Assembly: GCA_041725915.1 (NCBI GenBank)
Contig: JBGRPZ010000009.1
Span: forward strand, 499 to 64,498
DNA from: Hyphomicrobiales bacterium
GTDB lineage: Bacteria > Bacteroidota > Bacteroidia > Bacteroidales > JBGRPZ01
DNA: 64,000 nt
Direction: 5' to 3'
The position numbers were made by a program, and so were the translations under genes. The notes under the pieces are model-generated. The model searched no databases, was not told where the DNA came from, and worked only from the letters and a program-made list of their open reading frames with translations. This document shows, one piece after another, positions 40,501 through 64,000 of this stretch. Position 1 is the stretch's first letter. Every line of letters starts with the position of its first letter.

Positions 40501-41073
40501 AGGAATTATACCAGAATCATCAGGGACTAATTGTATGCTAATAGATTTTATGACTTTTAGAGTGTTTTTCTTGGCATTGTATTGAAAAGGATACATATAA
40601 ACATTTATACCCCTTATAGCCCTTACCAGATAGGGTTTAGATGTAGAGGTGCTTTGTTGAGGATACCATTGATCCACAATTGACTCAGGAGCTATTTTAA
40701 CTTTCACAGATTTAGGATCTTGATCTCTGTTGATTGATCCCTTTGAAGGAATGAGAGGGTAGTCAAGTTGAATTTCTTCACTTTCTTCAGCTTTAACGAC
40801 TACTTTGTAGTTGGAATAATCGCTTATAGCAATAGAAGTGTTTACATATGGTAATTCAGCCCATCCCTTTTTCTTTGTATGTATATTATGGTCAAAAAGG
40901 AGTTTCGTGTATTTCTTTCCATCAATAATTATGGATTCAAATTTAGTTTCTTCAAATTGGAAATGAAGTTCATGTATATTGACCTTGTTTGAATAGTTTA
41001 CCTCCCATGATTCATTTTTAGAAAAAGATGTAAAGCAAGTTATTAGAAATAATAGTGTAAAGAATTGTTTCAT
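37525..41073 (-). CDS. C25 (gingipain-like) cysteine peptidase with Ig-like/CARDB-like repeats and T9SS C-terminal sorting domain
   Basis: 1182 aa with a signal peptide. The catalytic His is in VVNYAGHGS and the Cys in FTVACINGSF. The C-terminal ~80 aa (KVYPNPFKDETSIAYF...GLFLCRITINGISSTHKMIKW) is a Por secretion tail. Confidence 0.8.
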   Translation of the reverse strand: MKQFFTLLFLITCFTSFSKNESWEVNYSNKVNIHELHFQFEETKFESIIIDGKKYTKLLFDHNIHTKKKGWAELPYVNTSIAISDYSNYKVVVKAEESEEIQLDYPLIPSKGSINRDQDPKSVKVKIAPESIVDQWYPQQSTSTSKPYLVRAIRGINVYMYPFQYNAKKNTLKVIKSISIQLVPDDSGIIPINPSRNKKQILKGSLAFYNSFFINPIQKTRESLVLDEFGDLLIITTDRDEEAIKPYISWKKEKGFNVNKIVVEKGTNVKDLIKDEYDKNNKLLYVLLVGDYEDIKSDKEFSSPIDQMLGCVSGDDYYLDLCIGRFSANSPEEVQTIVDKVINYEKNPKGDFYKSTLGIGSREGLWGADDNEVDYVHVENIYNGRLKPNGYDKYYYCYEPNDDLQTVIDALNNGVGVVNYAGHGSKKGWKTSGFSNTEINGLTNGDKLPIIFTVACINGSFEDESDCFAETFLKKKNGGAIAVVASTINQPWIPPMRGQDYMNDILTGGYSYITSPGCGISTDEGRTTFGSIVSNALILMLKESNTIHDVKTVKTWTTFGDPTLQVRTSTAKDIKLSNEKIYDNIPFSTTVFAENVPFPNAYITISQGDIYVTGKTDDNGMVTIDHSFSEGNVKFVVTGQNLNTVYTEKEILPNETPNFRLKAITINDSEENNNQVLENTETIKLSIELENIGAGEGTDLSLKLSTTDNYYSIIDNTELLDQIPSSSSKTLTDAFEVRLLKDTPNNHNALFSLIISGTEEHVLDFIINSKAPQFDIESSITEPNNDINPGEGGSVSVKITNNSTIDALNFSGDFISDSEYITIGNESFSVAKIKAGETIERNVQFSTSANTPQGTLTSITFKAKVDNSKDLQVETPVVIGKTSILILECINEKYKDYSGSAQLLEKALRKREITYKSIKGNDFPEEVNLSKYKSVWVMQGCYPYTIQLASEAKQKIFNYLLKGGFVYLEGAESWNIPSKHTNLFQIKGIRNSTKFDTDNIKGLSGTIAEGFVRKYKNATAYINKLTPQNGSQAILINSIGSTFYNCVVSYIDENSGYKTIGSSIELRGLIDDVDDSILDIYLKFFNLKTSTEKIDLKTPLKVYPNPFKDETSIAYFLDEDAHVTIDIYDINGKKISSIENTHKAKGQHLISLSPANIHMEPGLFLCRITINGISSTHKMIKW

Positions 41074-49300: not shown

Positions 49301-50552
49301 GTATACTTTGAGTATAACAGTAAGTGATGGAGTAAATACTAGTGAAGAGGGGATAGTAATAGTAAATGTAACTGATTTCAATTATCCAGCTGTTATTACT
49401 GCAGGACAGAGTTTTGATATAGCAGAGAATGCAAATATAGATGATATTGTCGGTGAGATTCAAGTTACAGATAGAGATAAGAATGCTGTTTATTCTTTTA
49501 CAATTGTATCAGGTAATGAAGATGGCGTATTTGGTATTAACCCGAATAATGGAGAGCTATTTGTTGCTGATAATAGTAATCTTAATTATGATGCTGCTAA
49601 GCAGTATACTTTGGGTATCACAGTAAGTGATGGAGTAAATACTAGTGAAGAGGGGACTGTAATAGTAAATGTTACAGATTTCAATTATAAGCCAGTTATT
49701 ACATTAGGACAGAGCTTTGAGATAGCAGAGAATGCCAATAATAATGATGTTGTAGGCAACATTCTAGCTACAGATCAGAATCCAAATACAACTTTATCTT
49801 CTTATACAATTGCTTCAGGCGATGAAGATGGTGTATTTGGTATCAACTCAGATAACGGTGAGTTATTTATTTCTGATAACACTAAGCTTAATTATGATGA
49901 TGCTAATCAATATACTTTAGGTATCACAGTAAGTGATGGAGTAAATACTAGTGAAGAAGGAACAGTAACAATAAATGTTACAGATTTTAACTATGCTCCT
50001 GTAATTGAAGCTTCCCAGACTTTTACTGTAGAAGAGGAAGTAGATAATGGTTTAATAGTAGGCATGATCAAAGCAAGTGATAAAGATGAGAATGATCAAT
50101 TGCAAAATTGGACTATAGTTTCAGGAAATGAATCAGGAGTGTTTGCAGTAAATGAGGATGGAGCTTTATGTATAAAAGACAAGAGTAATGTAGGTAACAG
50201 AAAAGATCTCAAGTATACTCTTTCTGTAACTGTAAGTGATGGACAAGCTACAAGTGAAGCAGTTGAACTTGTTGTAAATATCATCAATTATACTGGACTA
50301 TCTGAAGTTAGTCAAATTGTAGACTATAAGTTAGTTCCAAACCCAGCAAAAGACCATTTCAGTATTGTAAGTAATGCTTTTGCATATCCAATCGAAGTTG
50401 AAATAGTTGATATTACAGGGCATGTTGTAGTAACACCTATTCAGTATAATAAAGGTGATCAGATGTCAATTCAACTGAAGGCTGGAATCTATTTTGTGAA
50501 GATTATAGAAGAAGGAAACCTTCCTCAAGTGAAGCGATTGATTATAAAGTAA
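46383..50552 (+). CDS. giant surface protein: BspA-type (DUF285) leucine-rich repeats + six cadherin-like modules + T9SS C-terminal sorting domain
   Basis: 1389 aa with a signal peptide. It has 19 repeats of ~23-25 aa with the core GDLSSWDVSNVT.MS.MF, and six ~102-aa modules (F.I.ENANN.DVVG......D.......Y.I.SGNEDGVFGIN..NGELFVADNSKLNYD..KQYTL.ITVSDG.NTSEE). The tail LVPNPAKDHFSI...GIYFVKIIEEGNLPQVKRLIIK is a Por secretion tail. Confidence 0.85.
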   Translation: MKSNLFTIYILLFLINFIPIQLFADEDELDGTSFITVWKTDNLSGGSNSTSITIPTRSYHIYNYDIDFNNDGKFEVTGVRGDYTHDFGEAGTYTIRIRGEFPSIYFHTDINDEERKDNLKLLEVKQWGNLSFRTFYCAFEGCGNLKITAKDVPDLSNVCSMSKMFYKARNLTGDLSSWDVSNVTSMNYMFYEAMAFTSNLNSWDVSNVMNMSGMFYEARSFNSDLSSWDVSKVRDMSHMFCSAISFTRDLDSWDVSNVRDMSHMFYVAKTFNGDISSWDVSGVTDMNDMFYCAEKFTGDLSSWDVSNVTNMSGIFSSASNFNSDLSSWDVSNVTNMSSMFSGTSFTGDLSSWDVSSVTGMCHMFRGISNFTGDLSSWDVSNVTDMSGMFSGTNFTGDLSSWDVSNVTDMSGVFSDTNFTGDLSSWDVSNVTNMSGMFSGTSFTGDLSSWDVSNVTDMSDMFSFASSFNGDLSSWDVSSVTNMHGMFHGASSFNGDLSSWDVSNVVHMIYMFDGASSFIGDLSSWDVSSVTDMRGMFDGASSFNGNLSSWDVSNVWNMSGMFRRASSFNGDLSFWDMSSVTNMHGMFDGASSFNGDLSSWDVSNVTSLCYMFDGASSFNGDLSSWDVSEVIDFMFFLDSTSYSVDNYNKLLITWSEKEELVRGVEFNARSIKYKGALAASARQKLIDDYGWNIVDGGECIILPAQKFSIAENANNNDVIGSVKSDKDNNGQLQDWTVISGNSDGVFGINSNNGELFVADNSKLNYDAAKQYTLSITVSDGENTSAEEEVIINITDFNYKPVITSGQSFSILENANNTDVVGSVAATDKDSNTTLSSYVIASGNEDGVFGINPDNGELFVADNSKLNYDDTKQYTLVITVSDGVNTSEEETVTINITDFNYKPVITSGQSFSILENANNNDVVGIVAATDKDSNTTLSTYTIVSGNEDGVFGINADNGELFVADNSKLNYDDAKQYTLSITVSDGVNTSEEGIVIVNVTDFNYPAVITAGQSFDIAENANIDDIVGEIQVTDRDKNAVYSFTIVSGNEDGVFGINPNNGELFVADNSNLNYDAAKQYTLGITVSDGVNTSEEGTVIVNVTDFNYKPVITLGQSFEIAENANNNDVVGNILATDQNPNTTLSSYTIASGDEDGVFGINSDNGELFISDNTKLNYDDANQYTLGITVSDGVNTSEEGTVTINVTDFNYAPVIEASQTFTVEEEVDNGLIVGMIKASDKDENDQLQNWTIVSGNESGVFAVNEDGALCIKDKSNVGNRKDLKYTLSVTVSDGQATSEAVELVVNIINYTGLSEVSQIVDYKLVPNPAKDHFSIVSNAFAYPIEVEIVDITGHVVVTPIQYNKGDQMSIQLKAGIYFVKIIEEGNLPQVKRLIIK
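46850..48290 (+). repeat. intragenic tandem repeats (69-75 nt) encoding 19 BspA/DUF285 LRR units
   Basis: The phrase gacctaagttcgtgggatgtgtctaatgtgacg recurs with few substitutions throughout. Antisense ORFs in the track (47252..48160) are mirror artefacts of this periodicity. Confidence 0.9.
48480..50290 (+). repeat. intragenic 306-nt tandem repeats encoding cadherin-like modules
   Basis: For example, attacagactttaactataaaccagttattacctcaggacaaagcttctctatactagagaatgccaataaca occurs at 48756 and again at 49062, exactly 306 nt apart. Confidence 0.9.
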
Positions 50553-50650: not shown

Positions 50651-53600
50651 TTATTTACACATCTCAAGAAGTGTTTTTACTGCTCCTTTAAGTTGTTGAT
50701 CTATGCCATTGTCAATTTGTCCTGGCATATTTTTTATTTGTACATCAGGTACAGTTTCATTGTTTTCCATCCAGTTGCCTGCTTTATCTTTTGCACTTAC
50801 TGGTACTGAACCCCAAAGAACTTCACCATTTTGCAGCATTTCCCATCCTGCAAAACTACAAGTACCAGGTGTAGGCATACCTACAATCTTACCTATGCCT
50901 AAATCTTTATAAGCACAAGCAAAACAAGAACCATCACTATAGTTTCCTTCGTTGATCATAGCTACAGAAGGCTTTGTCCATCTAAACCCTGGCTCATAGC
51001 CTATATTTCTGCTTTCAATAGCATACTCCATAAACCTTTCACCAGTCAGGAACATAGTTAAATCTCCAACTAGATCACCACCACCATTGAAACGAGTATC
51101 AACGATAAGTCCATCCTTGTCAAAGTGTTTTCCTAGTGCTTTTTCGTATACATTACGATATTTTCCGTCGTTCATTCCCGGAATATGTACATAACCTAGT
51201 TTGCCATTGCTTAGCTTTGCAACCTCTTCTTCATTCTGACGTACCCATCTTTCATATAGAAGGCCATTCTCAGCACCTAATGAAATAGGCTTGATTGTGA
51301 TATCAAACTCTTTTTTCTTCTTAGGGTCAAATATGTGAAGAGCAGTAAACTTGCCAGACTTTCTGTTAAGTAGCATTGCATAGTCAATATCCTTTGTGAT
51401 CTCTTTACCATCAATCTTTTGGATAATCATACCTGCTTTTACATTTAAATGCTTCTTGTCTAGTGGGCCATTCTTGATGATCTCTGTAATCTTAAGTCCA
51501 TTACCTTTATGTGAATAGTCGATGAACACACCAAGAGAAGCAGTTTTGTCAGCCATACTAGTTCTATAGTAGTATCTGGATCCACAGTGAGATACATTTA
51601 GTTCTCCAAGCATTTCTGAAAGCATTTCAGAGAAGTCAAAGTTGTTGTTTATAAACTCTAACTTAGGTTCGTAATTAACTCTCATAGCATCCCAATCTAT
51701 TCCATGGTAATCTGAGATATAGAACATGCTCTTAGTACGTCTCCAAACGTGATCAAACATTTGTTGGCGTTCAGCTTTAACATCAAGATTTAATTCACCA
51801 CTAATGCTGATACCTTTGTTTGATTTCGCTTTTACATCAATCTTTGAGATTCTACCTCCTGATAATAGGAAAAGTTGTTTGTGATCATTGTCCCACTGTA
51901 ATGAACCACCACGTGCATTTAGTTTCACCAACATCTTGGTTTCTTTTGTACGTAGGTTGGTACTCCAAAGATTAGATTTCTTTTCAAAGCGTGTAAGGTA
52001 ATAAAGAGTCTCACCATCTTTTGAAAGTACAGCATCACTTATTTTTGATGAATGTATAGTCAATCGTTCTTTACGATCTTTCATACCATCCATATCAAAC
52101 TCAAGAGGTTTTACTTCTTTCTTCTTTTTATCTTTATCTTTCTTGTCTTTTTTATCCTTCTTATCCTTATCATCATCTTTCTTGTTCTTCTTTTCTATTT
52201 CTTTCAATAAAGCATAATCATCTTTGCTTAGCTTAAACTTATCAAAAGCATCTTTTGTGAAGAACATAGTGTAAACATCCATTTGGCTACCACCGCTATT
52301 TGCGTGTGCTCTCATACCATTACGATTAGAGAACCAAATCATTTGTTTACCATCATTTACCCATTTTGCTCCTACATCATTATATCCACTTTCTGTAAGG
52401 TTTATCATTTCTGACTTACCATCAGCAGCGATAAGAACTACTTCGCTATTGGCTAGCACTGGTGAATATTCAACAAGTAACCATTTGCTGTCAGGACTCC
52501 ATTGGAAATACTGATCGCCATCACCCATATAGAATAGTTTATCACTACCCATTAGTATACGGGTTTTCTTGCTCTTTATATTATATATAGCTAATTCGCG
52601 CTTGTCTCTGATATATGCAATCTCTTTACCATCAGGAGATACCTGAGGCATATAGTTTTCATGCTCATCAACAATCAAAGGTTCTTCTTTGATGATAGTA
52701 GCTGCGTAGAAATAAGGTTCTTCTTTATCAGCCTTCTTACTCTGATAGATACCCCATTTAGCATCACGTTCGCTTGCATAGATTACACTCTTGCCATCTG
52801 CTGAAAATGTTACAAACTCTTCTGCTGCAGGTGTGTTTGTAATTCTCTTTGTCATCTTTCCTTCAACAGAAGAAACAAATACCTCCCCACGAACGATATA
52901 AGCTACTTCTTTACCATCAGGTGAAATAGCCATTTCACTTACATTGCCACTTATAGAAATAACCTTTTCATTGTTGTATTTATCACCGACTTTGATGGTT
53001 ACATTTACCTTTTGTGGTTCGCTACCTTCTACCTGAGTGTATAACTCACCATTATGAGTATAACAAAGTTTACCTTCATCAGAAATGCTAAGGAAACGTA
53101 CAGGATGTTGCTTGAACTTTGATATTGCAGTATTCTTACTAGGTGTAGCCAAACTCATTTTGTGAACATTGAATGTTCCGCTTTCTTCTGTAAGATAATA
53201 GATGCTTTTCTGGTCAGGTGTATAAACAGGATTACGATTTTCACCTTTAAAGGTAGAAATCATTTTATGCTCATTATTCGCCTTGTTATATACCCATATG
53301 TCACGAGTGATAGCAGAAGTATGATGTTTACGGAATTTGTCTTCACCTGCTTTTTTATCATGATAGATCATTTGTTGACCATCCTTACTTACTTGTACAT
53401 ATTCGGCAGGAATAGTCCAGATTTGTTCAACCTGCCCACCTTCAATAGGTACTTGATATAGTTCTGTTAGTCTTGATGTTGGATATTGTCTGTGATTCAC
53501 ATCATCTATTCTATGACCACCGAATATAATATGCTTATCATCGTTGCTGAAAGTATAAGGAAGTTCTCTTGAAGAGAAATAAGTCAGACGTTTTGTTGCT

Positions 53601-53890
53601 CTTGTATCCAAGTCAATTACAAATACATCAAAGTTGCCGTATCTGTTAGAAGCAAATGCTATTTTGCTTCCGTCATGACTCCATATAGGCATATAGTCAT
53701 GTGCTGTGTGATAGGTAAGAGCTTGAGCTTCTCCTCCTTTTGAGTTAACTAGATATAAGTCCCCTTTTGCTGAAAATACAATTTGTTTGCCATCAGGTGA
53801 TATGGATGAATATCTTATCCAATCTGTATTGTTAGCAAACATAGCACTACTAAAAAGTAGGCTTAGCGCAAACCATAATACTCTTTTCAT
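50651..53890 (-). CDS. tricorn-protease-like S41 peptidase (beta-propellers + PDZ + S41 catalytic domain)
   Basis: 1079 aa with a signal peptide. The N-terminus has TolB-like repeats (SPDGK/SHDGS). A PDZ-like region (GLKITEIIKNGPLDK...AGMIIQKIDG) is followed by a C-terminal S41-like core. Size and architecture match tricorn homologs common in Bacteroidota. Confidence 0.8.
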   Translation of the reverse strand: MKRVLWFALSLLFSSAMFANNTDWIRYSSISPDGKQIVFSAKGDLYLVNSKGGEAQALTYHTAHDYMPIWSHDGSKIAFASNRYGNFDVFVIDLDTRATKRLTYFSSRELPYTFSNDDKHIIFGGHRIDDVNHRQYPTSRLTELYQVPIEGGQVEQIWTIPAEYVQVSKDGQQMIYHDKKAGEDKFRKHHTSAITRDIWVYNKANNEHKMISTFKGENRNPVYTPDQKSIYYLTEESGTFNVHKMSLATPSKNTAISKFKQHPVRFLSISDEGKLCYTHNGELYTQVEGSEPQKVNVTIKVGDKYNNEKVISISGNVSEMAISPDGKEVAYIVRGEVFVSSVEGKMTKRITNTPAAEEFVTFSADGKSVIYASERDAKWGIYQSKKADKEEPYFYAATIIKEEPLIVDEHENYMPQVSPDGKEIAYIRDKRELAIYNIKSKKTRILMGSDKLFYMGDGDQYFQWSPDSKWLLVEYSPVLANSEVVLIAADGKSEMINLTESGYNDVGAKWVNDGKQMIWFSNRNGMRAHANSGGSQMDVYTMFFTKDAFDKFKLSKDDYALLKEIEKKNKKDDDKDKKDKKDKKDKDKKKKEVKPLEFDMDGMKDRKERLTIHSSKISDAVLSKDGETLYYLTRFEKKSNLWSTNLRTKETKMLVKLNARGGSLQWDNDHKQLFLLSGGRISKIDVKAKSNKGISISGELNLDVKAERQQMFDHVWRRTKSMFYISDYHGIDWDAMRVNYEPKLEFINNNFDFSEMLSEMLGELNVSHCGSRYYYRTSMADKTASLGVFIDYSHKGNGLKITEIIKNGPLDKKHLNVKAGMIIQKIDGKEITKDIDYAMLLNRKSGKFTALHIFDPKKKKEFDITIKPISLGAENGLLYERWVRQNEEEVAKLSNGKLGYVHIPGMNDGKYRNVYEKALGKHFDKDGLIVDTRFNGGGDLVGDLTMFLTGERFMEYAIESRNIGYEPGFRWTKPSVAMINEGNYSDGSCFACAYKDLGIGKIVGMPTPGTCSFAGWEMLQNGEVLWGSVPVSAKDKAGNWMENNETVPDVQIKNMPGQIDNGIDQQLKGAVKTLLEMCK
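52115..52195 (-). repeat. low-complexity Lys/Asp-rich insertion inside the tricorn-like gene
   Basis: Encodes EKKNKKDDDKDKKDKKDKKDKDKKKKE, from a (cttTtt/atc)n purine/pyrimidine-skewed DNA tract. Confidence 0.8.
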
Positions 53891-54077: not shown

Positions 54078-54242
54078 TTATTTATTATAGCATAGACCTG
54101 CTGAGAAAAATGTTATAGCTGTGATTAGACAACCAATAAATGAAGCAGTTTTCTGCTCATTAGATTTAGTTGAAACTCCTAAGTTAGATATAGCTTCTTT
54201 CTTTAGCGATAATTTTCTGTTTATTTCTGTTGCCTTTTTCAT
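54078..54242 (-). CDS. small leader-bearing peptide P1 (54 aa), putative RiPP/bacteriocin-like precursor
   Basis: Below the ORF-track cutoff. My base-by-base translation is MKKATEINRKLSLKKEAISNLGVSTKSNEQKTASFIGCLITAITFFSAGLCYNK*. It shares its leader with P2-P6 and its core GC.ITA..FFS with P2. Confidence 0.6.
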   Translation of the reverse strand: MKKATEINRKLSLKKEAISNLGVSTKSNEQKTASFIGCLITAITFFSAGLCYNK

Positions 54243-54428
54243 GACGTAGTTTAATTAAGGTTAAATTATTTTGAAGATGATGGGGAGGGGATATGTCTTT
54301 GTTACACTGGTATTTAAACTTATTCTTAATTACGTATATTTTATATTTATTATATTATTTTCAATATAATTATTAGTTAATCATCTGTATCCCTTTGTTT
54401 GTAGGCATTATACAGCTAACAAAAAAAA

Positions 54429-54472
54429 CTGCCTAAGCAGTAAAAAAGTTCATTTTTTACATATTTAGGCAG
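54429..54472 (-). terminator. terminator of peptide gene P2
   Basis: CTGCCTAA...TTAGGCAG has an 8-bp stem and a long loop, followed by T8 on the minus strand. Confidence 0.45.
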
Positions 54473-54498
54473 CATTTCTTCTCTATGATATGATATTA

Positions 54499-54660
54499 TC
54501 AAATACAATGTTTAGCTAAAGAAAAAAAGATAGTGGCTGTGATTGCACAACCAACAATTGTTCCTGTTCTTTGCTTATTAGACTTGTTCAAAGTTTCTAT
54601 ATTGCAAATAGCCTCTTTACTTAAAGATAGCTTTCTATTGACTTCAAAAGACTTTTTCAT
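54499..54660 (-). CDS. small leader-bearing peptide P2 (53 aa)
   Basis: My translation is MKKSFEVNRKLSLSKEAICNIETLNKSNKQRTGTIVGCAITATIFFSLAKHCI*. It is a paralog of P1. Confidence 0.6.
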   Translation of the reverse strand: MKKSFEVNRKLSLSKEAICNIETLNKSNKQRTGTIVGCAITATIFFSLAKHCI

Positions 54661-54968
54661 ACGATAAATACATGAAATTTAAGTGAAATAATAATTATAG
54701 TTGACCCTACTGGCAATTATTTGCTCAATGAGCTTTATGGAGAAATCATTAACGTATTAATATTCATAAGTAAAAACACAATTGTGTACAATGAGATTAT
54801 CTATTCTTTATAGTAAAAAACAATAAGTTGTAATAAAACACTCTATATCTTTTAAATATGCTTGCTAGGCCTTGTTTTCCTGTAATTCATAACTTATGTT
54901 AAAGTATTGTTGTCCTTATTTTATGTATGATTAATAATGCAGAATAGATAGAAAATTATACAATAAAA

Positions 54969-54999
54969 AGAGCCTGTATATAATATATGTACAGGCTCT
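54969..54999 (-). terminator. terminator of peptide gene P3
   Basis: AGAGCCTGTA-tataatatatg-TACAGGCTCT is followed by T5 on the minus strand, 30 nt after the P3 stop. Confidence 0.6.
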
Positions 55000-55028
55000 T
55001 TCTTCAAAATTATTAGTTTCGAATTAAT

Positions 55029-55175
55029 CTAACATCCGTTTCCATTTGTTGTTAGTGACCAAGATACAGTAGATGTAGTTCTGGCCATGGATTCGATGCC
55101 TATATTGAAACGAGCAATACTCTTCTTATTTAAATCAAGTTCTTTATTGCTTTGTGTTCTTGTTTCCTTTTTCAT
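55029..55175 (-). CDS. small leader-bearing peptide P3 (48 aa)
   Basis: My base-by-base translation is MKKETRTQSNKELDLNKKSIARFNIGIESMARTTSTVSWSLTTNGNGC*. The core resembles P5 (ST[IV][ST]W...G.C). Confidence 0.6.
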   Translation of the reverse strand: MKKETRTQSNKELDLNKKSIARFNIGIESMARTTSTVSWSLTTNGNGC

Positions 55176-55508
55176 TATATATTATACTTTAGGGTTCTAT
55201 TAAAATATTATTAAGTGAGAGAGTTTTGTTTTTAGGTTTTATATGCAATCAAATAACTCAATATTATTCTCTTGTATTATTTGTTTTATATAAATTTTTC
55301 CATTCTTTACATATCCGATTTCTATATGTATCCCTTATATAATGGATAATACTGGTGTTTCTGATTACTTAGAATATTATTTTTTTTGTAATTTTTTTCT
55401 ATTCATTTTAATATTCTGATTAAAAATTGATTAGATATAATATTTACAGCTTGTTTTGTGCTAATAATGCTGTTATTTGAACTTTAAATAGCTCTTGTTT
55501 TATCCAAT

Positions 55509-55524
55509 TGGCATATTTATTGCA
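55509..55524 (+). promoter_or_regulatory. sigma-54 (RpoN) -24/-12 promoter candidate upstream of the HU-like gene
   Basis: TGGCAT-ATTTA-TTGCA has the correct GG-N10-GC spacing. It lies 156 nt upstream of the ATG at 55680. Confidence 0.5.
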
Positions 55525-55679
55525 AATTCTAGCTATTTGTAAACAGACTGAATAGTCAAGGGTTTGCCCAACATTGGCTATCGGCGTATTTATTTTTTTG
55601 TAGAAAGTTATGCTAATTAAATTTTAAATAACCGGATAATTAAGGTTAAAAAGAATTATCCATCCAAACCCCCAATATT

Positions 55680-56375
55680 ATGAGCATTAAATATGCACTT
55701 TATCCTAACCATTTAACAGAAGATCCTGATGATTATGTAGGAGTCATCACAGAACGTAAATCTATTGATCTTGAAGCATTAGTTAAATACATGACCCGTC
55801 GTGGTACTTCCTTGACCGATACTGAAGTTGAAGTTGTACTTAAAGAACAACAATATGCCATTAAAGAATTGTTGATGCAAGGTTATACAATTAACCTACC
55901 TACTTTTAAAGTTGGAGCCTCAATGAAAGGTATATATAGAGGAGCAGAGGATTGTTATGATCCGAAACGCCACAGTGTAGAGTATAATGTTACTCTGGGG
56001 AAAGCCTTGTCAATTGATACCTCTCAGTTAAAAATAGAAAAGACAAAACCTAATGAGAAAGCTCCTGAAGTTATGGGAATTTTTGATCGCTTTTCTGGTA
56101 CTAAGGATGATAAGATAACACCTAAAGGCTCTTTAGATATCAAAGGTTATTCATTGAAGATCCATACTGAAGTAGAAGATGAAGGTGTGTTTTTTATCTG
56201 TGGAGAAACAAAGACAAGAGCTGAAGTTTTTTTCAATAATACAGATTCTATCCTTGAGCTTAAAGTTCCTGATAGCTTAGTTGCTGGCAAATATTATATT
56301 GAAGTACGTAAGAGGTTTATTAGATGTAAAAAACTTACTAAATGCAGATATGATCAAGAGTTTATAGTAGAATAG
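55680..56375 (+). CDS. HU-like DNA-binding domain protein with C-terminal DUF4469 Ig-like domain
   Basis: 231 aa. The N-terminus MSIKYALYPNHLTEDPDDYVGVITERKSIDLEALVKYMTRRGTSLTDTEVEVVLKEQQYAIKELLMQGYTINLPTF matches the Bacteroidota-specific histone-like (HU_HIG) family. The C-terminal IKGYSLKIHTEVEDEGVFF is DUF4469-like. Confidence 0.7.
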   Translation: MSIKYALYPNHLTEDPDDYVGVITERKSIDLEALVKYMTRRGTSLTDTEVEVVLKEQQYAIKELLMQGYTINLPTFKVGASMKGIYRGAEDCYDPKRHSVEYNVTLGKALSIDTSQLKIEKTKPNEKAPEVMGIFDRFSGTKDDKITPKGSLDIKGYSLKIHTEVEDEGVFFICGETKTRAEVFFNNTDSILELKVPDSLVAGKYYIEVRKRFIRCKKLTKCRYDQEFIVE

Positions 56376-56400
56376 TAGATTAATAAATTCGTAGTCCATA

Positions 56401-56432
56401 AAGCTGATTCATTTAATGAACCAGCTTTTTTT
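56401..56432 (+). terminator. rho-independent terminator of the HU-like gene
   Basis: AAGCTGATTCAT-tta-ATGAACCAGCTT has a 12-bp stem with 1 mismatch and is followed by T7. Confidence 0.65.
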
Positions 56433-56466
56433 ATGAATTACCCCAATTTTATATCTACTGTGATAG

Positions 56467-56560
56467 AGCGTTTGTACTTATAAGGACAAACGCTCTGTAC
56501 AGACTGTACATAATGATTGTACTTATAGGTACAAACGCTATGTACTTATAAGGACAAAAA
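56467..56560. repeat. array D: three copies of TGTACTTATA(A)GG(A/T)ACAAA(CGCT) plus extra TGTAC motifs; the first copy lies in a 9-bp-stem hairpin
   Basis: Copies lie at 56473-56494, 56518-56539 and 56541-56560. AGCGTTTGT (56467-56475) pairs with ACAAACGCT (56486-56494). TGTAC also occurs at 56496 and 56505. Confidence 0.8.
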
Positions 56561-56633
56561 GACCCCTCCTGTAAGTACCATCAATTGGGGATTACAAGAG
56601 GGGTGATTTTGTACTGTGAGTATGTCTTTTTTG

Positions 56634-57776
56634 TTACTTCTTGTTGTAAGGGGAATATCTTATTATTTCATCAAGATGATTCTCTAGTGCAATTGTAATA
56701 TGTACATCAGGTTTCTCATTGAATAAGATGTCTTCGTTAAGTTTATATTGCCAAGCATCCCAAATGTAAACAGTGTTTTCAAAGCATTGATTGATAAAAG
56801 GTATAATATTAATAGTAAAAGAATCTCTTACAATAAGAGCTTTTATTTTATTGTCGCAATTACTTTTATATCTATGTTGGAACTCCCATGGATAAGCAAA
56901 ACCTTGAATAACCGGATAATCCAGATTAGGTAGTTTCTCTAGTTCAGGAATATCCTCAGAAGGATTGATTTCGGGTATAGTTTCCATTACTTCATTAGCT
57001 AAGCCTAAATTGCTGATAAGATTACCACCATAGATATCTTTCATAAAGAAGTTGTATTTCTCTTTTGAGTATGGAGATCTTATGTTGATACTATCAGCAA
57101 TGATCTTATTAGTTATAGCCTCAGTAGCATAATATCCAGCAAGTTTATTCCAATGACTATCATTAATCAAGAATATTTGTTCTGTTTTAGATTTCTCTTT
57201 CATGAGAGGTCTAAGATCAATAAAATTATTTTTTGGTTCCTGATTTAACATCCTTACAATTTGATCTGTTCTGGTTTCATCAGGTAATCTTTCTTTAAGA
57301 TTATCAGGCAGCTGGTTTGGATAAATGGAGGATTTATCAGGAACTATAATGAGATAATATTTTCCTCCTAAACTATCAAGAACATGTTCTCTTCTTTGAA
57401 TTTCCTTCTTGAATATTATAAGTTCTTCATCAGAAAGCTTGTTTTTACCTAGTGCTTGAAGATGAGCAGATTCCTTTTGAAATAACCATTTGTCTTTACC
57501 TATAACAACAGGAGATTCGGTAATGACATAATTATAATTGATCCAGTTGTAGAAGTATGAAAAATAGTTTCTAATATTGAAATGATCTTTATAATAATTG
57601 CTATACAGCTTAGGGAAATAATCAAGATGAGCTAAGTCTATTTCTGGTTTATCTGCCAGTTTTCTGTTTTCACTATTATCAAGATCTTTCATTATATGAA
57701 CAGAACCATTTATAAAGGGAAAAGTAATCATAAAACAGAAAACTATGCTTATTGCAATTTGTTTATATCTTTTCAT
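56634..57776 (-). CDS. AlgX/AlgJ-like (DHHW-type SGNH-like) O-acetyltransferase partner protein
   Basis: 380 aa with an N-terminal TM anchor. LINDSHWNKLAGYYA contains the D-x-H-W catalytic motif of the AlgJ/AlgX family. It lies 16 nt downstream of the MBOAT gene. Confidence 0.65.
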   Translation of the reverse strand: MKRYKQIAISIVFCFMITFPFINGSVHIMKDLDNSENRKLADKPEIDLAHLDYFPKLYSNYYKDHFNIRNYFSYFYNWINYNYVITESPVVIGKDKWLFQKESAHLQALGKNKLSDEELIIFKKEIQRREHVLDSLGGKYYLIIVPDKSSIYPNQLPDNLKERLPDETRTDQIVRMLNQEPKNNFIDLRPLMKEKSKTEQIFLINDSHWNKLAGYYATEAITNKIIADSINIRSPYSKEKYNFFMKDIYGGNLISNLGLANEVMETIPEINPSEDIPELEKLPNLDYPVIQGFAYPWEFQHRYKSNCDNKIKALIVRDSFTINIIPFINQCFENTVYIWDAWQYKLNEDILFNEKPDVHITIALENHLDEIIRYSPYNKK

Positions 57777-57792
57777 TGTAAAATCTCCTTAT

Positions 57793-59250
57793 TTAAAATC
57801 TAAAGTAAATGAATGGGTTATAAGAATCAGCAATAAGCATAATAGTACTAGTGATTATTGTAATCATAACAAAAGCAAGTTCTCCGATATATAAACCTGA
57901 TCGAAGACCTATATTAAGGGCTTTGTATTGCCTTGTATTGCTAATTCCTTTTTGTATAAACTTAAGAGTTATTAAAGGAAGTCTTGTTGAGCTTAACACA
58001 GCGACAATAAAGAGAATAATGATTAAAGGCGAGTTGATTTTAAAGGCTAAGTCTGGAGATGCTATGCCAAAGTCAAATTGATTTAATTTCTTTAAGTAGT
58101 TGAGTCCATGACTAAAGTCTGTAGTGACAAAGAATACTCTTGTATATATTATAATCAATAAAGCATATAAGTGTTGTATAGGCGTCCATAGTTTTTCTAA
58201 TACTTTACCAAATCCAATTCGTTCAATGACCATAAACACTCCATGAGTCATGCCCCATATGACGAAGTTCCAACTTGCCCCATGCCATATAGAAGTAGCA
58301 AAGAAGATTATAAGAAGGTTGAGCATTGTTCTTGAATAGCCTTTTCTATTTCCTCCAAGAGGGAAGTATAAATAGTTTCGGAACCAATCAGAAAGAGTAA
58401 TATGCCATCTTTGCCAGAATTCTTTAATTGACTTTGCGATGTATGGAAAATTAAAGTTTTCAGGGAAATGGAAGCCTAACATTCTGCCAAGTCCAATAGC
58501 CATATCAGAGTAACCAGAGAAATCGAAATAGATTTGTATAGTATATGCTATGATTCCAATCCAAGCATCCGTTGAATTCATAATGTTCGCATCAAGTTCA
58601 AAAGCAATATCAGCAATAGCACCAAATTGGTTAGCAATGATAACCTTTTTGAATAAACCCAGAGTAAACCTCCTTATACCTGTTTCTATATTTGTCCAGT
58701 TGCTTTTGCGATACTTTAATTGTTTTTCAATGTTTTGGTATCTGATAATAGGGCCAGCTATCAATTGAGGAAAGAAGGATATATATAAAGCTAAATCAGA
58801 GAACTTCTTTTGTACTTTTACCTCTTTCCGATATACATCAACTATATATGATATGGCTTGAAAGGTATAAAAAGAAATTCCTATAGGAAGTATAATTCCA
58901 AGATCTTTTATAGGCTTCGCCTTGAATAGGGGAAGAAGATAGTTGATGTTTTCAACTATAAAATTAGCATATTTAAATAGCCCAAGGCATGCTAGATTAA
59001 TGATGATTCCTATTGTTAGTATAACTTTCGCTTTGTTAGAACCAGTATATTTATTGATCAGTCTACCTGTGAAATAATTAATTATAAGTGAAATAATTAA
59101 GATTAATGAATAACTGACGCCTCCCCAAGCAAAGAATATTAAGCTAGCTCCTAATAAAAAGTAATTCCTTAGTCTTCTCTTTAAAAGATAATTTCCAATA
59201 AGTACTATTGGAAGGAATACAAACAAGAATAATAATGAACTAAATACCAT
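57793..59250 (-). CDS. MBOAT family membrane-bound O-acyltransferase (AlgI/DltB/PatA-like)
   Basis: 485 aa polytopic protein. Conserved FWQRWHITLSDWFRNYLYFPLGGNR and IWHGASWNF (invariant His) blocks are present. Confidence 0.85.
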   Translation of the reverse strand: MVFSSLLFLFVFLPIVLIGNYLLKRRLRNYFLLGASLIFFAWGGVSYSLILIISLIINYFTGRLINKYTGSNKAKVILTIGIIINLACLGLFKYANFIVENINYLLPLFKAKPIKDLGIILPIGISFYTFQAISYIVDVYRKEVKVQKKFSDLALYISFFPQLIAGPIIRYQNIEKQLKYRKSNWTNIETGIRRFTLGLFKKVIIANQFGAIADIAFELDANIMNSTDAWIGIIAYTIQIYFDFSGYSDMAIGLGRMLGFHFPENFNFPYIAKSIKEFWQRWHITLSDWFRNYLYFPLGGNRKGYSRTMLNLLIIFFATSIWHGASWNFVIWGMTHGVFMVIERIGFGKVLEKLWTPIQHLYALLIIIYTRVFFVTTDFSHGLNYLKKLNQFDFGIASPDLAFKINSPLIIILFIVAVLSSTRLPLITLKFIQKGISNTRQYKALNIGLRSGLYIGELAFVMITIITSTIMLIADSYNPFIYFRF

Positions 59251-59358
59251 TCGAAATGTAAAATATTACTTATTTATAAATGCTTTTAAGGCATGCAATT
59301 TACTAAAATATTTAGATGGAAATTAGTTTTATATTATAGGGTACTCTTCGATATAAAA

Positions 59359-59386
59359 AGCCCAAACAAAAGAAATTGCTTGGGCT
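59359..59386 (-). terminator. terminator of peptide gene P4
   Basis: AGCCCAA-...-TTGGGCT hairpin is followed by T5 on the minus strand, 21 nt after the P4 stop. Confidence 0.55.
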
Positions 59387-59406
59387 GTAAATGGTATTAA
59401 TAATGC

Positions 59407-59559
59407 CTTATATGTTATAAACACCAGCAAAAGTAGGTGGAGGTCCTGTAAAATGAGGACTTGAGAAAGGTAGATTATCATCACCTAATCCAAAACTCAT
59501 CTTAGAGATAACAGTTTTGTTTAATGCGAGTGCATTATGTAATTCTGTTGTTTTCTTCA
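59407..59559 (-). CDS. small leader-bearing peptide P4 (50 aa), Pro-rich Cys-free core
   Basis: My translation is MKKTTELHNALALNKTVISKMSFGLGDDNLPFSSPHFTGPPPTFAGVYNI*. The leader is shared with P5/P6 (L.LNKT.ISKMS). Confidence 0.55.
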
Positions 59560-59819
59560 TTTTGTTATCTTTTTAAATGTTTTAAGCAAACATTGGAAGG
59601 ATTTAATAATAGAATGGTATTTTGATATTACTATTAAAAGAGGAGATGATTTTAATCATCTGCTTTCTTTTATTTGAATGAGTATTTATGTTGATTTATT
59701 ATAAATAAGGTACAAGATCTTGTAAGCATGAGAGTGTATAATGTTGTTAATGCTTTTGTATGCTTGGGTTTTATATAGATTAGTAATTATGCTTGTATTT
59801 GAATAGTTTTTATAAAAAA

Positions 59820-59850
59820 AGCCTGAATAAAAGATGATTTTATTCAGGCT
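59820..59850 (-). terminator. terminator of peptide gene P5
   Basis: AGCCTGAATAAAA-gatga-TTTTATTCAGGCT is followed by T7 on the minus strand, 23 nt after the stop. Confidence 0.65.
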
Positions 59851-59872
59851 TTCAAATTGGTAGATAATTTAT

Positions 59873-60019
59873 CTACATTCCAATATTACAACCATCTAAT
59901 GAGGTTCCTGTCCAAGTGATAGTTGAAGAAGATTTGTTTTCATTAGAAACAAGACTCATCTTAGAGATAAGAGTTTTATTTAATGAAAGCTTGTTATATG
60001 ATCTTGTTGCTTTATTCAT
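59873..60019 (-). CDS. small leader-bearing peptide P5 (48 aa)
   Basis: ORF track 59873..60073. By homology with P6 the real start is the internal Met: MNKATRSYNKLSLNKTLISKMSLVSNENKSSSTITWTGTSLDGCNIGM*. Confidence 0.6.
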   Translation of the reverse strand: MNKATRSYNKLSLNKTLISKMSLVSNENKSSSTITWTGTSLDGCNIGM

Positions 60020-60226
60020 TTCTCTATTAACTTTTTTACGATTATAACTAAGTGATAAGGTAATATAAACCATTACCTTATTTCTTTCAATAAAGATTTA
60101 TATTGGTTTATCATAAATAGTAAGTAAGACTAGATAGGTTAATCTCATTTTATATAAAAAGGCCTATAAGAGTAATTTGTATAAGCTTTTAACTTTTAAG
60201 TATTATTGACCTACCTATATTCAAAC

Positions 60227-60370
60227 TTAGCACTTACCATGTGAGAAGGTCGTTACAGTAAGAGTAGTGATAATTGTTGAAGTTTTGTTTTCGTGTGAAA
60301 CAACACCCACCTTAGATACGAGAGTTTTGTTTAGTAAGAGCTTATTATATGATCTTGTTGTTTTATTCAT
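60227..60370 (-). CDS. small leader-bearing peptide P6 (47 aa)
   Basis: My base-by-base translation is MNKTTRSYNKLLLNKTLVSKVGVVSHENKTSTIITTLTVTTFSHGKC*. 16 of its first 20 residues are identical to P5. Confidence 0.6.
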   Translation of the reverse strand: MNKTTRSYNKLLLNKTLVSKVGVVSHENKTSTIITTLTVTTFSHGKC

Positions 60371-60637: not shown

Positions 60638-62740
60638 TTATTTCTTTATGAACTTATATTGCTCAATAGCCTTACCATTAGAAGATTTGATTAGATATAA
60701 ACCAGAGTTCCAATTATTGGTATTGACTTTAATATTCTTCTGTTGTTGATTGGTTTGTTGCTTGTAGACCAAGCCACCCATAGTATTGTAGATTTCGATA
60801 TTACAATTATTATCACCATTCATTTTCAATTGCAGATAGTCGTTGCATGGGTTAGGGTATATGTTTCTCAGTACTTTATTATCATAACCAGAGATCTCTT
60901 CAGTATCAACAGTATTTACAAGAGTTTTATAGATGTTTATCTTTCCAAAACCCCACTTGTTATCAGGAGTGGTAAGCTCTCCTGTAAATTCATCCTTATC
61001 AGTATTAGCAAATAAGATATCACGAATTTCCTTATTGGTAAGTGTCGGATTCTTTTCTAAAAGAAGAGCAATAGCACCAGTAACAGCAGGGCAAGACATA
61101 GAAGTACCACTCTTACTAACATGTTTATTCTCTTTGTTATTTGCTGCAGCAGAAATGACAAACATTCCCGGGGCAGAGATTTCAGGCTTTATTCTACCAT
61201 CAATAGTAGGCCCTTGAGAAGAAAAAGGCATAAACTCACCTTTTTGATAACCTTCTTCTGGTCTATTCACATATCCACCAACAGTAATTGTGCTTTTACT
61301 ACTTCCGGGAGTACCTATAGCGTAAGAGTTGTCAGGATAAATATAATTATCATATGTTGCCAAATCAAATTCTTTAGGGTTATGTATAAACTTCCCAAAT
61401 AGACGCCATAGATGCATTTTACCAGAACCTTTCATGTAAAGTCTTATCCAGCTTACTCCTTTATTTGTTTGTTTGGTTTTTATTTCTTCATCCAGTTTAA
61501 TAGAAACCTCAGAATATTCTTCATTTCTTTTGGATATAGTTACATGTATAGTTGCAGCAATGCTATTATCCCTATAGGGGATTTCAAATACTTTCTCATC
61601 ATCTATATCTGCTATTTCTTTTAGGGTGATATAGTTAGTCTTTTTGATAAACATAGAAGGAAAAGTGTTCGCATTCTCAGTAGTAATACTGTCTAAACCA
61701 AATGCTATAGATATTTTATTCAAATCTTCATTTTTGACAGCTCCGTGTAGATCTATACGATGAGAAGAGACTGTATAAGGAATCACCCAAGTCCATTGCT
61801 CATCTGTTTTTGTTTCTGCTTTTATGTGTATCAAATGTTTACCTGAGTTTCCAGCAGCGTTTACAAAAGCTCTACCATGTTTTTCATTCACTAATTCGCT
61901 TAGCATTATCTCCATAGGATCAGAGCCATTGTGAAGAGACCTTTGAAAACCGTAACTAGCATTTATTACACAAGGACGATTTAATTTATCTGCAATACTA
62001 TATATATAGTTTGCAGCATCAACAGAAGGTGTGGATTCAAGAAAACTAATTTTTACTACAACAATATCTGCCTCAGGAGCAACACCAAGGTTTCCAGCAG
62101 CAATACCAGCAACATGAGTTCCGTGACCTAAGTCATCTTTAAAGGGGATTTTTGTATTGCTATTAATACTTGCTTCAATTTCCTCTTTTGTATATTCTCT
62201 TCCATATGGAACGCTTTGAGACTTCTTGAATTCTGATGCCTTTTGATCCCATATAGCAAGTATTCTTGATTTTGAAGGATCATCAGGAACTCTAAAATCT
62301 TCATGCTCTATATCAATACCAGAGTCAATAATACCAACAATGACACCTTTGCCTTTATAAGGTTTGTTCAGAGGTTTTTCTCCTTGATGCACTTTGATAG
62401 CTTCAATGTTTTTTATTACTTCATTCGTGCTTGGTTGCATAGACCTAGCCAGTTGAATGTGTTTTACTCCTTTAGAAAGAGAAAGAGTTTCTAACGTTTT
62501 ATAAGGTATTCTTGCTGTAAGAAGAGAAGAGGTGACAGTATTTATATCACCTCCATTCTCTGAAATTATACCTTTGATTATATCTATATTTCCTTCAACA
62601 AACACATTATAGTTTATTGAACTTCTTTTGGTGTTATTAGAGAGTTTTGATTTTAATTCAATATCCAGTTTGCTGTAATCTTGGCTGAATAGATTTAGTG
62701 ATAATATGACTATTGAAATAGTAAATATTAAAGGTCTCAT
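60638..62740 (-). CDS. S8 subtilisin-like serine peptidase with T9SS C-terminal sorting domain
   Basis: 700 aa with a signal peptide. Triad VGIIDSGID (Asp), HGTHVAGI (His), GTSMSCP (Ser). The tail NIYPNPCNDYLQLKM...GLYLIKSSNGKAIEQYKFIKK is a Por secretion tail. Confidence 0.85.
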   Translation of the reverse strand: MRPLIFTISIVILSLNLFSQDYSKLDIELKSKLSNNTKRSSINYNVFVEGNIDIIKGIISENGGDINTVTSSLLTARIPYKTLETLSLSKGVKHIQLARSMQPSTNEVIKNIEAIKVHQGEKPLNKPYKGKGVIVGIIDSGIDIEHEDFRVPDDPSKSRILAIWDQKASEFKKSQSVPYGREYTKEEIEASINSNTKIPFKDDLGHGTHVAGIAAGNLGVAPEADIVVVKISFLESTPSVDAANYIYSIADKLNRPCVINASYGFQRSLHNGSDPMEIMLSELVNEKHGRAFVNAAGNSGKHLIHIKAETKTDEQWTWVIPYTVSSHRIDLHGAVKNEDLNKISIAFGLDSITTENANTFPSMFIKKTNYITLKEIADIDDEKVFEIPYRDNSIAATIHVTISKRNEEYSEVSIKLDEEIKTKQTNKGVSWIRLYMKGSGKMHLWRLFGKFIHNPKEFDLATYDNYIYPDNSYAIGTPGSSKSTITVGGYVNRPEEGYQKGEFMPFSSQGPTIDGRIKPEISAPGMFVISAAANNKENKHVSKSGTSMSCPAVTGAIALLLEKNPTLTNKEIRDILFANTDKDEFTGELTTPDNKWGFGKINIYKTLVNTVDTEEISGYDNKVLRNIYPNPCNDYLQLKMNGDNNCNIEIYNTMGGLVYKQQTNQQQKNIKVNTNNWNSGLYLIKSSNGKAIEQYKFIKK
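60960..61079. repeat. 120-bp tract 119/120 identical to 63207..63326 (gene-conversion-like tract between the S8 paralogs)
   Basis: Direct comparison of the two stretches (ttatcaggagtggtaagctctcctgtaaattcatcctt[a/g]tcagtattagcaaataagatatcacgaatttccttattggtaagtgtcggattcttttctaaaagaagagcaatagcacca). Flanking sequence is much more diverged. Confidence 0.9.
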
Positions 62741-62878: not shown

Positions 62879-64000
62879 TTAATTCTTTACAAATTTAATT
62901 TGTTCAAAGGTATTACCACTATAAGACTTGATCAAGTATAGACCGGGATTCCAACTATTGGTATTGACTTTAATGTCCTTTTGTTGTTGATTGGTTTTGT
63001 TCTTATAAACTAGACTACCCATAGAGTTATATATTTCGATATCACAGCTGGTAGTACTATTTACTTTCAGTTGTATATATTCGTTACATGGGTTAGGGTA
63101 GATATTGTGGATAAGTTGGTGTTTAGCTGAAGTAATAATTTTGGTACTAGCAATAGCAGTGTTAGTTATAGCTTTAAAGATATTCAGTTTACCATATCCC
63201 CATTTATTATCAGGAGTGGTAAGCTCTCCTGTAAATTCATCCTTGTCAGTATTAGCAAATAAGATATCACGAATTTCCTTATTGGTAAGTGTCGGATTCT
63301 TTTCTAAAAGAAGAGCAATAGCACCAACAACAACGGGGCATGCCATAGATGTGCCACTTTGGATTATATGTTTCTGATCTTCACTAATACCAAGTTCAGA
63401 GCCCATACCAGAGAGTGCAGACATGACGAACATTCCCGGCGCAGAGATTTCTGGTTTAATCCTACCATCCAATGTTGGTCCTTGGGAAGAGAAGAGAGCA
63501 AAGTCACCAGCTTTGTATTTATCGCTATAATCAATGATATTGCCTAAAGAGTTTGTCCAGCTAGTTCTATTAATATATGCACCAGCAGTAATTATACGTT
63601 TTGCGTTTCCGGGAGTGCTTATAATACTTGAATTATCAGGATTAATGTAATTATCATCAACTGTTAGGTTGGCAGCTTGAGGGTTATATGCAGTTCTTCC
63701 TCTTTGATTCCATATATGCATTTCACCAGAGCCTTTGGCATAGAGTCTTATCCAGCCTATTCCTTTGTTTGTTTGCTGATCTTTTATATCTTCATTGATA
63801 ACAATAGTAACTTCCGAATACTCTTCATTTTTCTTAGCTATTATTATATCAATATTTGCAGCATTACTATTGTCTCTGTATAGAATAGTAAGTCTTTTAG
63901 CATTATCGCTATCGGCAATTTCTTTTAAGGTGATATATTCTGTTTTTTTAATGAATTCAGAAGGTAAGATTCTGTTTTCTCCTTCAAATGTAGTACTGTC
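62879..64000 (-). CDS. S8 subtilisin-like peptidase paralog with T9SS tail, 3' part (runs off the right window edge)
   Basis: The ORF track starts at an internal Met (63721), but the frame stays open to 64000. My translation upstream (...FIKKTEYITLKEIADSDNAKRLTILYRDNSNAANIDIIIAKKNEEYSEVTIVINEDIKDQQTNKGIGWIRLYAKGSGEMHIW...) aligns with residues ~365-460 of the neighbouring S8. It contains GTSMACP (Ser) and a Por tail. Confidence 0.8.
   Translation of the reverse strand, partial: DSTTFEGENRILPSEFIKKTEYITLKEIADSDNAKRLTILYRDNSNAANIDIIIAKKNEEYSEVTIVINEDIKDQQTNKGIGWIRLYAKGSGEMHIWNQRGRTAYNPQAANLTVDDNYINPDNSSIISTPGNAKRIITAGAYINRTSWTNSLGNIIDYSDKYKAGDFALFSSQGPTLDGRIKPEISAPGMFVMSALSGMGSELGISEDQKHIIQSGTSMACPVVVGAIALLLEKNPTLTNKEIRDILFANTDKDEFTGELTTPDNKWGYGKLNIFKAITNTAIASTKIITSAKHQLIHNIYPNPCNEYIQLKVNSTTSCDIEIYNSMGSLVYKNKTNQQQKDIKVNTNSWNPGLYLIKSYSGNTFEQIKFVKN
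63207..63326. repeat. partner of the 120-bp near-identical tract at 60960..61079
   Basis: See 60960..61079. Confidence 0.9.

Follow-up and report, generated by a model that had tools for sequence, protein, structure and literature searches.

We examined a 64-kb stretch of contig JBGRPZ010000009.1 (the window in what follows; all coordinates are window positions), in which six small genes, P1 to P6, appear to encode precursors of peptides that are made on the ribosome and modified after translation (RiPPs). The six genes lie in two AT-rich gaps with a GC content of 27%, compared with about 32-33% for the window and contig. Read along the minus strand, the locus comprises two subtilases of family S8 (S8-2, then S8-1), P6, P5 and P4, an MBOAT gene, a gene for an AlgX-like protein, P3, P2 and P1, and a Tricorn-like S41 protease, with an HU/DUF4469 gene on the plus strand between AlgX and P3.

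Coding nature of the six peptide genes

The initial annotation had listed six open reading frames (ORFs) of 47-54 aa, all on the minus strand, and an ORF listing of 52-64 kb reproduced them with identical translations. P1 (54078..54242, 54 aa), its paralog P2 (54499..54660, 53 aa, 53% identity) and P3 (55029..55175, 48 aa) occupy one gap, and P4 (59408..59560, 50 aa), P5 (59873..60019, 48 aa) and P6 (60227..60370, 47 aa), the last a paralog of P5 (61% identity), occupy the other. An in-frame ATG upstream of P5, at 60073, would give a longer ORF, and a start there is unlikely.

A hidden Markov model (HMM) built from the six leaders picked out exactly 6 copies from the window's 1,622 stop-to-stop frames, scoring 41-47 bits with a runner-up at 8.9 bits, and no copy in 357 kb of related control loci (best 7.1 bits). 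Codon comparison of P1 and P2 gave a proportion of synonymous differences (pS) of 0.72 against 0.22 for non-synonymous differences (pN), with a dN/dS of ~0.10, and over the first 22 codons, which lie in the leader, pS was 0.91 and pN 0.18; the dN/dS of P5 and P6 was ~0.31. The leaders were the most strongly purified part of the genes, with pN of 0.10-0.18 versus pS of 0.42-0.91. Identity between the 100-nt flanks of the genes was 0.57-0.69, at or barely above the background of 0.59 +/- 0.03 (maximum 0.67), and the similarity between paralogs does not extend beyond the start and stop codons, being confined to the coding sequence. P1-P6 are thus real coding genes that are under selection and evolve as proteins, and the unique matches to the leader HMM, the purifying selection and the near-background flanks show that they are not chance ORFs.

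The annotated hairpins with U-runs behind P1-P5, and the lack of one behind P6, were borne out by folding against shuffled sequences. Intrinsic terminators on the minus strand follow P1 (53990..54019, fold -17.1 kcal/mol, z -2.7), P3 (54960..55003, -21.3 kcal/mol, z -5.8), P4 (59354..59386, -17.1 kcal/mol, z -4.5) and P5 (59810..59853, -19.1 kcal/mol, z -6.5), and P2 is followed by a long hairpin with U8 (54418..54483, -23.2 kcal/mol, z -4.4). No hairpin was found in the 3' flank of P6, which folds no better than its shuffles (z +0.6), and the terminator of P5 probably serves P6 as well. Most of the peptide genes are monocistronic and have a terminator of their own. No promoter could be assigned, as sigma-70 matches occurred at chance level and the Bacteroidota -7 motif TAnnTTTG was found 92 times with 94 expected, neither of them marking P1-P6. 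Rfam and tRNA scans returned nothing in either of the two peptide-gene gaps.

Leader and core regions

Each peptide begins with a charged leader of ~30 aa, the first ~21 residues of which follow the pattern M-K/N-K...K-L-x-L-x-K-x-x-I-S-x-hydrophobic. In P1 the leader spans approximately residues 1-31 and contains the box RKLSLKKEAISNL. The NCBIfam model NF038153 (lant_leader_L1a, "class I lanthipeptide"), which has 32 positions and a curated cut-off of 22 bits, matched P1 with 26.6 bits, the sole peptide to pass, and matched P2-P5 below the cut-off. The only other NCBIfam match was a weak one, of P1 alone, to NF038158, the sister model for class I leaders, and a Pfam search of the peptides returned nothing.

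Walker et al. (2020) describe an LxLxKx5L motif in place of FxLD in class I lanthipeptide precursors (LanAs) of Bacteroidetes, and report that many of these leaders have a GG end and an accompanying C39 protease (PMC7268733). Written as LxLxKx5[L/I/M/V/F], the motif fits all six peptides. An independent HMM was built from eight Bacteroidetes LanA leaders taken from the supplementary table of that survey, each identified by RODEO within seven genes of LanC (PMC7268733). This model gave 28.2 bits for P1, 19.9 for P2, 14.9 for P4, 14.0 for P5, 12.8 for P3 and 5.7 for P6, placing the six on top of the ranking, and none of the window's other small ORFs that start with ATG exceeded 4.8 bits. The best unrelated stop-to-stop frame reached 9.3 bits in the window and 7.5 in the 357 kb of control loci, so that P6 alone falls within the noise of this model. 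Compared with RKLSLKKKAISNL of a Pedobacter jeongneungensis LanA, the RKLSLKKEAISNL box of P1 differs at one position.

The N-terminal stretch of ~21 residues is therefore a homolog of the recognition box, LxLxKx5L, that LanA leaders of Bacteroidota carry. The resemblance to such leaders, already suggested by the initial annotation, is thus carried by a score above the NF038153 cut-off for P1, sub-threshold scores for P2-P5, an independent HMM in agreement and a motif present in six of six peptides. A second kinship suggested at the same time, to the GG-type leaders of TIGR04149, is not supported, as none of the six matched TIGR04149 in the NCBIfam search even at E<=10.

Relatives of the whole peptides were not observed beyond the peptides themselves. 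A profile of all six returned only self-matches from a word-indexed set of 5.8 billion, and an exhaustive HMMER search over 1.84 billion representative proteins with the six-peptide profile likewise gave self-matches only. One extra profile match (P0006) was rejected as a repeat-derived artefact. Scans of viral and metagenome contigs with DNA patterns from the P4-P6 alignment found nothing. As judged from these searches the whole-peptide family is so far unique to the source contig, and the leader box is its only tie to known families.

The initial annotation had noted the missing GG site, and no GG precedes any of the six cores. Instead, in five of the six peptides a short polar segment ending in Lys or Arg stands directly before an uncharged core rich in Ser/Thr and Cys. 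With the leader/core border marked by a slash, these segments read SNEQK/TA (P1), SNKQR/TG (P2), ESMAR/TT (P3), SNENK/SS (P5) and SHENK/TS (P6), and P4 deviates with GDDNL/PF, which has no basic end. We infer the cleavage position from these borders. The net charge of the leader is +4 or +5 in five peptides and +1 in P4.

The putative cores are 16-23 aa long with 0-1 charged residues each. Ser and Thr together make up 20-50% of the cores compared with 13.8% in the long ORFs of the window, and Cys accounts for 7 of 118 core residues compared with 0.96% in the long ORFs. The putative cores of P1 (TASFIGCLITAITFFSAGLCYNK) and P2 (TGTIVGCAITATIFFSLAKHCI) each contain 2 Cys, those of P3 (TTSTVSWSLTTNGNGC) and P6 (TSTIITTLTVTTFSHGKC) each have 50% Ser/Thr and a C-terminal Cys, and that of P5 (SSSTITWTGTSLDGCNIGM) has 1 Cys. 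Cys and Ser/Thr, which occur together in lanthipeptide cores, were both present in five of the six (1-2 Cys, 22-50% Ser/Thr), with P4 the exception. The three core classes described initially are roughly right, i.e. P1 and P2 are hydrophobic with 2 Cys, P3, P5 and P6 are Ser/Thr-rich with 1 Cys, and P4 is Pro-rich with no Cys, and the logic of a conserved leader with variable cores stands. This composition is that expected of a modified RiPP core. Among the LanAs in the portion of the Walker et al. table considered, none shared the SNExK segment or the P1/P2 core. The core of P4 ("FTGPPPTF") and that of a Pedobacter jeongneungensis LanA ("...IVTGPPPATDRDTC...") both contain TGPPP, a stretch too short to exclude chance.

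Neighbouring genes and source contig

The pair of genes standing between the two peptide triplets (56634..59250, minus strand) consists of an MBOAT gene at 57793-59250 (Pfam PF03062) and a gene for an AlgX/DHHW-type SGNH protein at 56634-57776 (PF16822). The MBOAT is DltB-like with 170 bits, under the equivalog cut-off of NCBIfam. Homologs of the AlgX-like protein were found from 55% to ~25% identity with an MBOAT partner in every readable context, and the pair was observed in three independent genomic contexts, one of them a JGI contig without DNA. Its neighbours elsewhere are housekeeping genes, namely pyruvate:ferredoxin oxidoreductase (PFOR) subunits, fumarase, or a Mur ligase with glycosyltransferases, and no leader-type ORF was found in the contexts that could be read. 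In the portion of the supplementary data of the Walker survey considered here, including the tables of the commonest cluster Pfams, MBOAT is unmentioned (PMC7268733). Because the pair recurs alone in unrelated contexts without such peptides, it is most likely an autonomous and unrelated envelope O-acyltransferase cassette and probably not part of the peptide system. A co-occurrence of MBOAT/AlgX with the peptides was rejected on these grounds, and the "new peptide system" that the initial annotation had raised around the pair is not supported by a stand-alone cassette that is peptide-free elsewhere.

S8-1 (60638..62740, minus strand) carries a signal peptide, a Pfam S8 domain and a Por_Secre_tail, the C-terminal sorting domain of the type IX secretion system (T9SS), and has its own terminator. 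S8-2 (62879..64000, minus strand) is represented in the window by the C-terminal 373 of its 723 aa, and the rest runs 1,050 bp past the window. In both proteins the Asp/His/Ser motifs are intact, and since each has a signal peptide and a C-terminal sorting domain for the T9SS, they are predicted to be secreted or surface-attached. A third S8 paralog of the same contig (P0065) is truncated N-terminally with a complete C-terminus and is most simply a further tandem copy on the minus strand that the right end of the contig cuts off, the left end not being strictly excluded. The tandem array thus comprises at least 3 paralogs that are 60-64% identical, with DNA blocks 71-84% identical. S8-1 and S8-2 also have in common an identical block of 43 residues close to the catalytic Ser, suggestive of a recent event of duplication or gene conversion. 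The top 60 solved-structure matches of the S8s, subtilisins also among them, held no LanP, and NCBIfam gave no specific signal either. No leader-type ORFs were found near S8 relatives elsewhere (32-39% identity, plus partial matches of 47-51%). A role for S8 proteases as leader peptidases is nonetheless precedented, because LanP is of the S8 type and can act unclustered: in the Walker survey, 172 class I clusters have a LanP that is an S8 peptidase (PMC7268733), and an unclustered S8 matures paenilan (PMC8960859). By analogy, S8-1 and S8-2 are plausible but unproven candidates for extracellular leader peptidases.

With a length of 67,673 bp, the source contig extends ~3.7 kb beyond the window. 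According to the protein records, ~3.0 of these 3.7 kb are taken up by the rest of S8-2 and the third S8 copy, and the 50 kb to the left of the peptide genes contain housekeeping genes. The idea, considered initially, that the locus is the edge of a larger cluster is accordingly not supported on this contig.

The metagenome-assembled genome (MAG) is labelled "Hyphomicrobiales bacterium" by NCBI (e.g. MFA8299089.1). However, the contig has 32% GC, encodes at least 4 proteins with T9SS sorting domains and finds its closest relatives in a MAG of Bacteroidales (GCA_041725955.1), and on these three grounds it is placed in Bacteroidota; the MAG label or the contig binning is probably wrong. The organism is distant from anything sampled, with 38-55% protein identity.

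Several other genes of the window were observed. The HU-type DNA-binding protein with DUF4469 is encoded at 55680..56375 on the plus strand (PF14848 and PF14734). Peptidase genes are unusually frequent (5949-7220, 8867-10972, 28827-30539, 37525-41073 and 50651-53890) and include an M28, an S9 with a beta-propeller, a trypsin-like enzyme with TPR, a C25 gingipain-like enzyme with a T9SS tail and the Tricorn-like S41 protease. Arginine deiminase and an Orn/Lys/Arg decarboxylase are also encoded, and together with the peptidases these amino-acid enzymes indicate a proteolytic, amino-acid-fermenting lifestyle. The Tricorn-like protease (50651-53890) contains a long Lys/Asp low-complexity linker, KKNKKDDDKDKKDKKDKKDKDKKKKE, at 51900-52100. 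The gene at 46383-50552 encodes a surface protein of 1,389 aa that combines eight DUF285 repeats with six cadherin domains and also has a T9SS sorting domain. A 525-aa protein encoded at 11087-12664, 42 kb from the peptides, has matches to Asn_synthase, QueC and GATase_7 that are weak, so it is classed as an atypical amidotransferase-like enzyme; lasso-peptide cyclases are among the homologs of Asn synthetase. A tandem pair of tRNA-Met (CAT) genes with equal Rfam scores lies at 12966-13040 and 13077-13151.

Interpretation and comparison with known systems

The reading towards which we lean, with modest confidence, is that P1-P6 are unclustered multi-copy RiPP precursors of the LanA type known from class I lanthipeptides of Bacteroidota, with a maturase that lies elsewhere or is not known. 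The N-terminal box would dock a dehydratase of the LanB type whose gene lies elsewhere in the genome, Ser and Thr of the core would be dehydrated, and a LanC-type cyclase would add Cys to give (methyl)lanthionine rings, with P4, which has no Cys, staying linear or being dehydrated only. The leader would be cut by a protease after the basic residue (SNExK, followed by T or S), as LanP of family S8 does for nisin and epidermin. Because a segment with Lys or Arg at its end takes the place of the GG half, removal of the leader would not be expected to depend on a C39 exporter. The adjoining T9SS-secreted S8 paralogs would be the obvious, still unproven, candidates for the leader protease.

A number of observations weigh against this reading. 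Of 45 window ORFs of at least 110 aa that were considered in the search for maturases, 39 plausible genes were scanned with Pfam, and the remaining 6 are nested in longer genes on the opposite strand. The 39 genes include no LanB, LanC, LanM, YcaO, RiPP recognition element (RRE), C39-ABC or other ABC exporter anywhere in the 64-kb window, as the initial annotation had stated for maturases and exporters, and none of them matched Lant_dehydr or LANC_like, so that the expected proximity of LanB/LanC to a precursor is absent. The only radical SAM gene of the window (4150-5583, with a BATS domain) lies 50 kb off. LanB/LanC is probably also missing from the remaining 3.7 kb, because the S8 genes leave no room for LanB and LanC outside the window. 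LanB was completely absent from 1,136 surveyed Bacteroidales genomes (PMC10352776), and since the nearest relatives here are Bacteroidales MAGs the prior for a cognate LanB is lowered.

The peptides themselves add further points of this kind. NF038153 scores remained sub-threshold for P2 (19.8 bits), P4 (16.0), P3 (15.1) and P5 (13.0), P6 had no match, and P6 belongs to the family solely by its paralogy to P5. The alignments to NF038153 cover model positions 1 to about 21 of 32 only, and in the comparison with the published LanA leaders every alignment stops at model position 16-19, so that the usual ...LDQxQGG half of the leader is missing. The putative core of P4 (PFSSPHFTGPPPTFAGVYNI) is Pro-rich with no Cys, and therefore no lanthionine is possible. 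Regarding the subtilases, there are at least 5 S8 paralogs in the MAG, two of them on other contigs, and their adjacency to the peptide genes may be coincidental. They sit in a region that is peptidase-rich in general, and their sequences most resemble Csp germination proteases of clostridia, C5a peptidase and enzymes of the mycosin type. With a leader match that is full for P1 and partial for the others, a suitable core in five of six and no neighbouring synthetase, membership in the lanthipeptides cannot be claimed.

An alternative that we regard as unlikely, and still take seriously, is that these are stranded or repurposed precursors with no maturase, i.e. decaying relics of a lost lanthipeptide cluster, or peptides that work unmodified, for instance as small, hydrophobic bacteriocin-like or membrane-active molecules (P1/P2) or as signals. 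The lack of any linked maturase or exporter, the missing LanB of surveyed Bacteroidales (PMC10352776), cores of P1 and P2 that look like a hydrophobic helix and a family with no relatives elsewhere are all consistent with such an origin. However, the leader is the most strongly purified part of the peptides (pN 0.10-0.18 vs pS 0.42-0.91), which would be unexpected if nothing recognises it. The six frames are also all intact, five of the six terminators have been kept, and the Ser/Thr/Cys enrichment of the cores, typical of modified peptides, has been retained.

We consider it improbable that the genes represent a new leader-guided system without lanthionine chemistry, in which a LanA-type box was co-opted and the S8s remove the leader and/or MBOAT-AlgX O-acylates the cores. 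The arrangement would suit such a system, with six genes flanking MBOAT-AlgX and abutting the S8 array on the same strand, in a contig without a classical maturase and from an order in which LanB is reportedly absent (PMC10352776), as would a leader that lacks the GG/C39 half and has a K/R end, and a P4 without Cys. Yet homologs of MBOAT-AlgX (55%-35% identity) invariably occur as this pair of genes in unrelated housekeeping surroundings, without a leader-type ORF nearby, and MBOAT is absent from the part of the Walker survey supplement considered (PMC7268733). The S8 relatives (32-39%; partial 47-51%) similarly have no such peptides nearby, and the S8 family is expanded across the genome; moreover, the S8s have their own terminator and the peptide genes are separate transcription units. 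Slightly more doubtful still is the case in which the genome has no synthetase and the leader family was captured by another route, with the precursors exported, the S8 array cutting after K/R and the cores perhaps O-acylated by MBOAT-AlgX. Finally, chance ORFs in AT-rich intergenic repeats, which might be suspected from the 27% GC of the region, the frequency with which annotation overlooks small ORFs of such size and the lack of a definable promoter (sigma-70 and TAnnTTTG at chance), are effectively refuted by synonymous change far exceeding non-synonymous change, similarity that stops at start and stop codons, five dedicated terminators, leaders matching both a curated family and an independent HMM, and nothing comparable in 357 kb of control DNA.

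If P1-P6 are indeed LanA-type precursors, they would add six new core sequences to the lanthipeptide repertoire of Bacteroidota and offer a clear case of class I-type precursors located away from their synthetase, with a basic leader end other than GG. Genome mining limited to a few genes around LanC would miss such genes, and the T9SS-secreted S8 proteases would be possible Gram-negative counterparts of wall-anchored LanP. If the genome has no LanB/LanC, the leader box would mark a maturation route not yet known, which would matter much more. A route through S8 and MBOAT-AlgX, if true, would constitute a RiPP-like class of a new kind, and its MBOAT would be the first from bacteria to act on a ribosomal peptide.

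Among known systems, the GG-motif RiPPs of Bacteroidales (TIGR04149-type, with peptidase-containing ATP-binding transporters (PCAT) and radical SAM or YcaO enzymes) are alike in that they too are small, come from Bacteroidia and have N-terminal leaders rich in Lys, whereas P1-P6 have no TIGR04149 match, no GG, no PCAT and no linked radical SAM or YcaO. The prochlorosins and "cyanotins", class II peptides with Nif11 leaders, resemble P1-P6 in having many paralogs with a conserved leader and hypervariable cores, and they are described as having precursors far from a single synthetase and some cores without Cys (PMC7268733). They differ from P1-P6 in belonging to another leader family, in their LanM enzyme, in their occurrence in Cyanobacteria and in their GG cleavage site.

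As in the nisin- and epidermin-type class I systems with a LanP leader peptidase, a surface-targeted extracellular S8 stands beside the precursor genes, in this instance by means of a T9SS sorting domain (NisP is anchored to the wall), and a basic residue occupies the putative P1 position of the cleavage site. In contrast, the leader here has LxLxK where theirs has an FNLD box, and the S8s most resemble Csp and C5a peptidases, show no specific LanP similarity and form a tandem, genome-wide expanded family whose cleavage of P1-P6 is putative.

The class I LanAs of Bacteroidota (NF038153; Pedobacter jeongneungensis/lusitanus and the pinensin family) show both differences and likenesses. Their ...LDQxQGG half is replaced here and GG is lacking, whereas GG is frequent among them, though not universal. 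Published members were identified within seven genes of LanC, while the 64 kb here contain no LanB/LanC/C39-ABC. P1 alone reaches the curated score, and the P1-P6 cores match no published LanA in the portion of the survey table considered. On the other hand, the two groups have the leader box in common, with MKK...RKLSLKKxAISNL nearly identical in P1, as well as several divergent precursor copies side by side, uncharged cores rich in Ser/Thr/Cys and the same host phylum.

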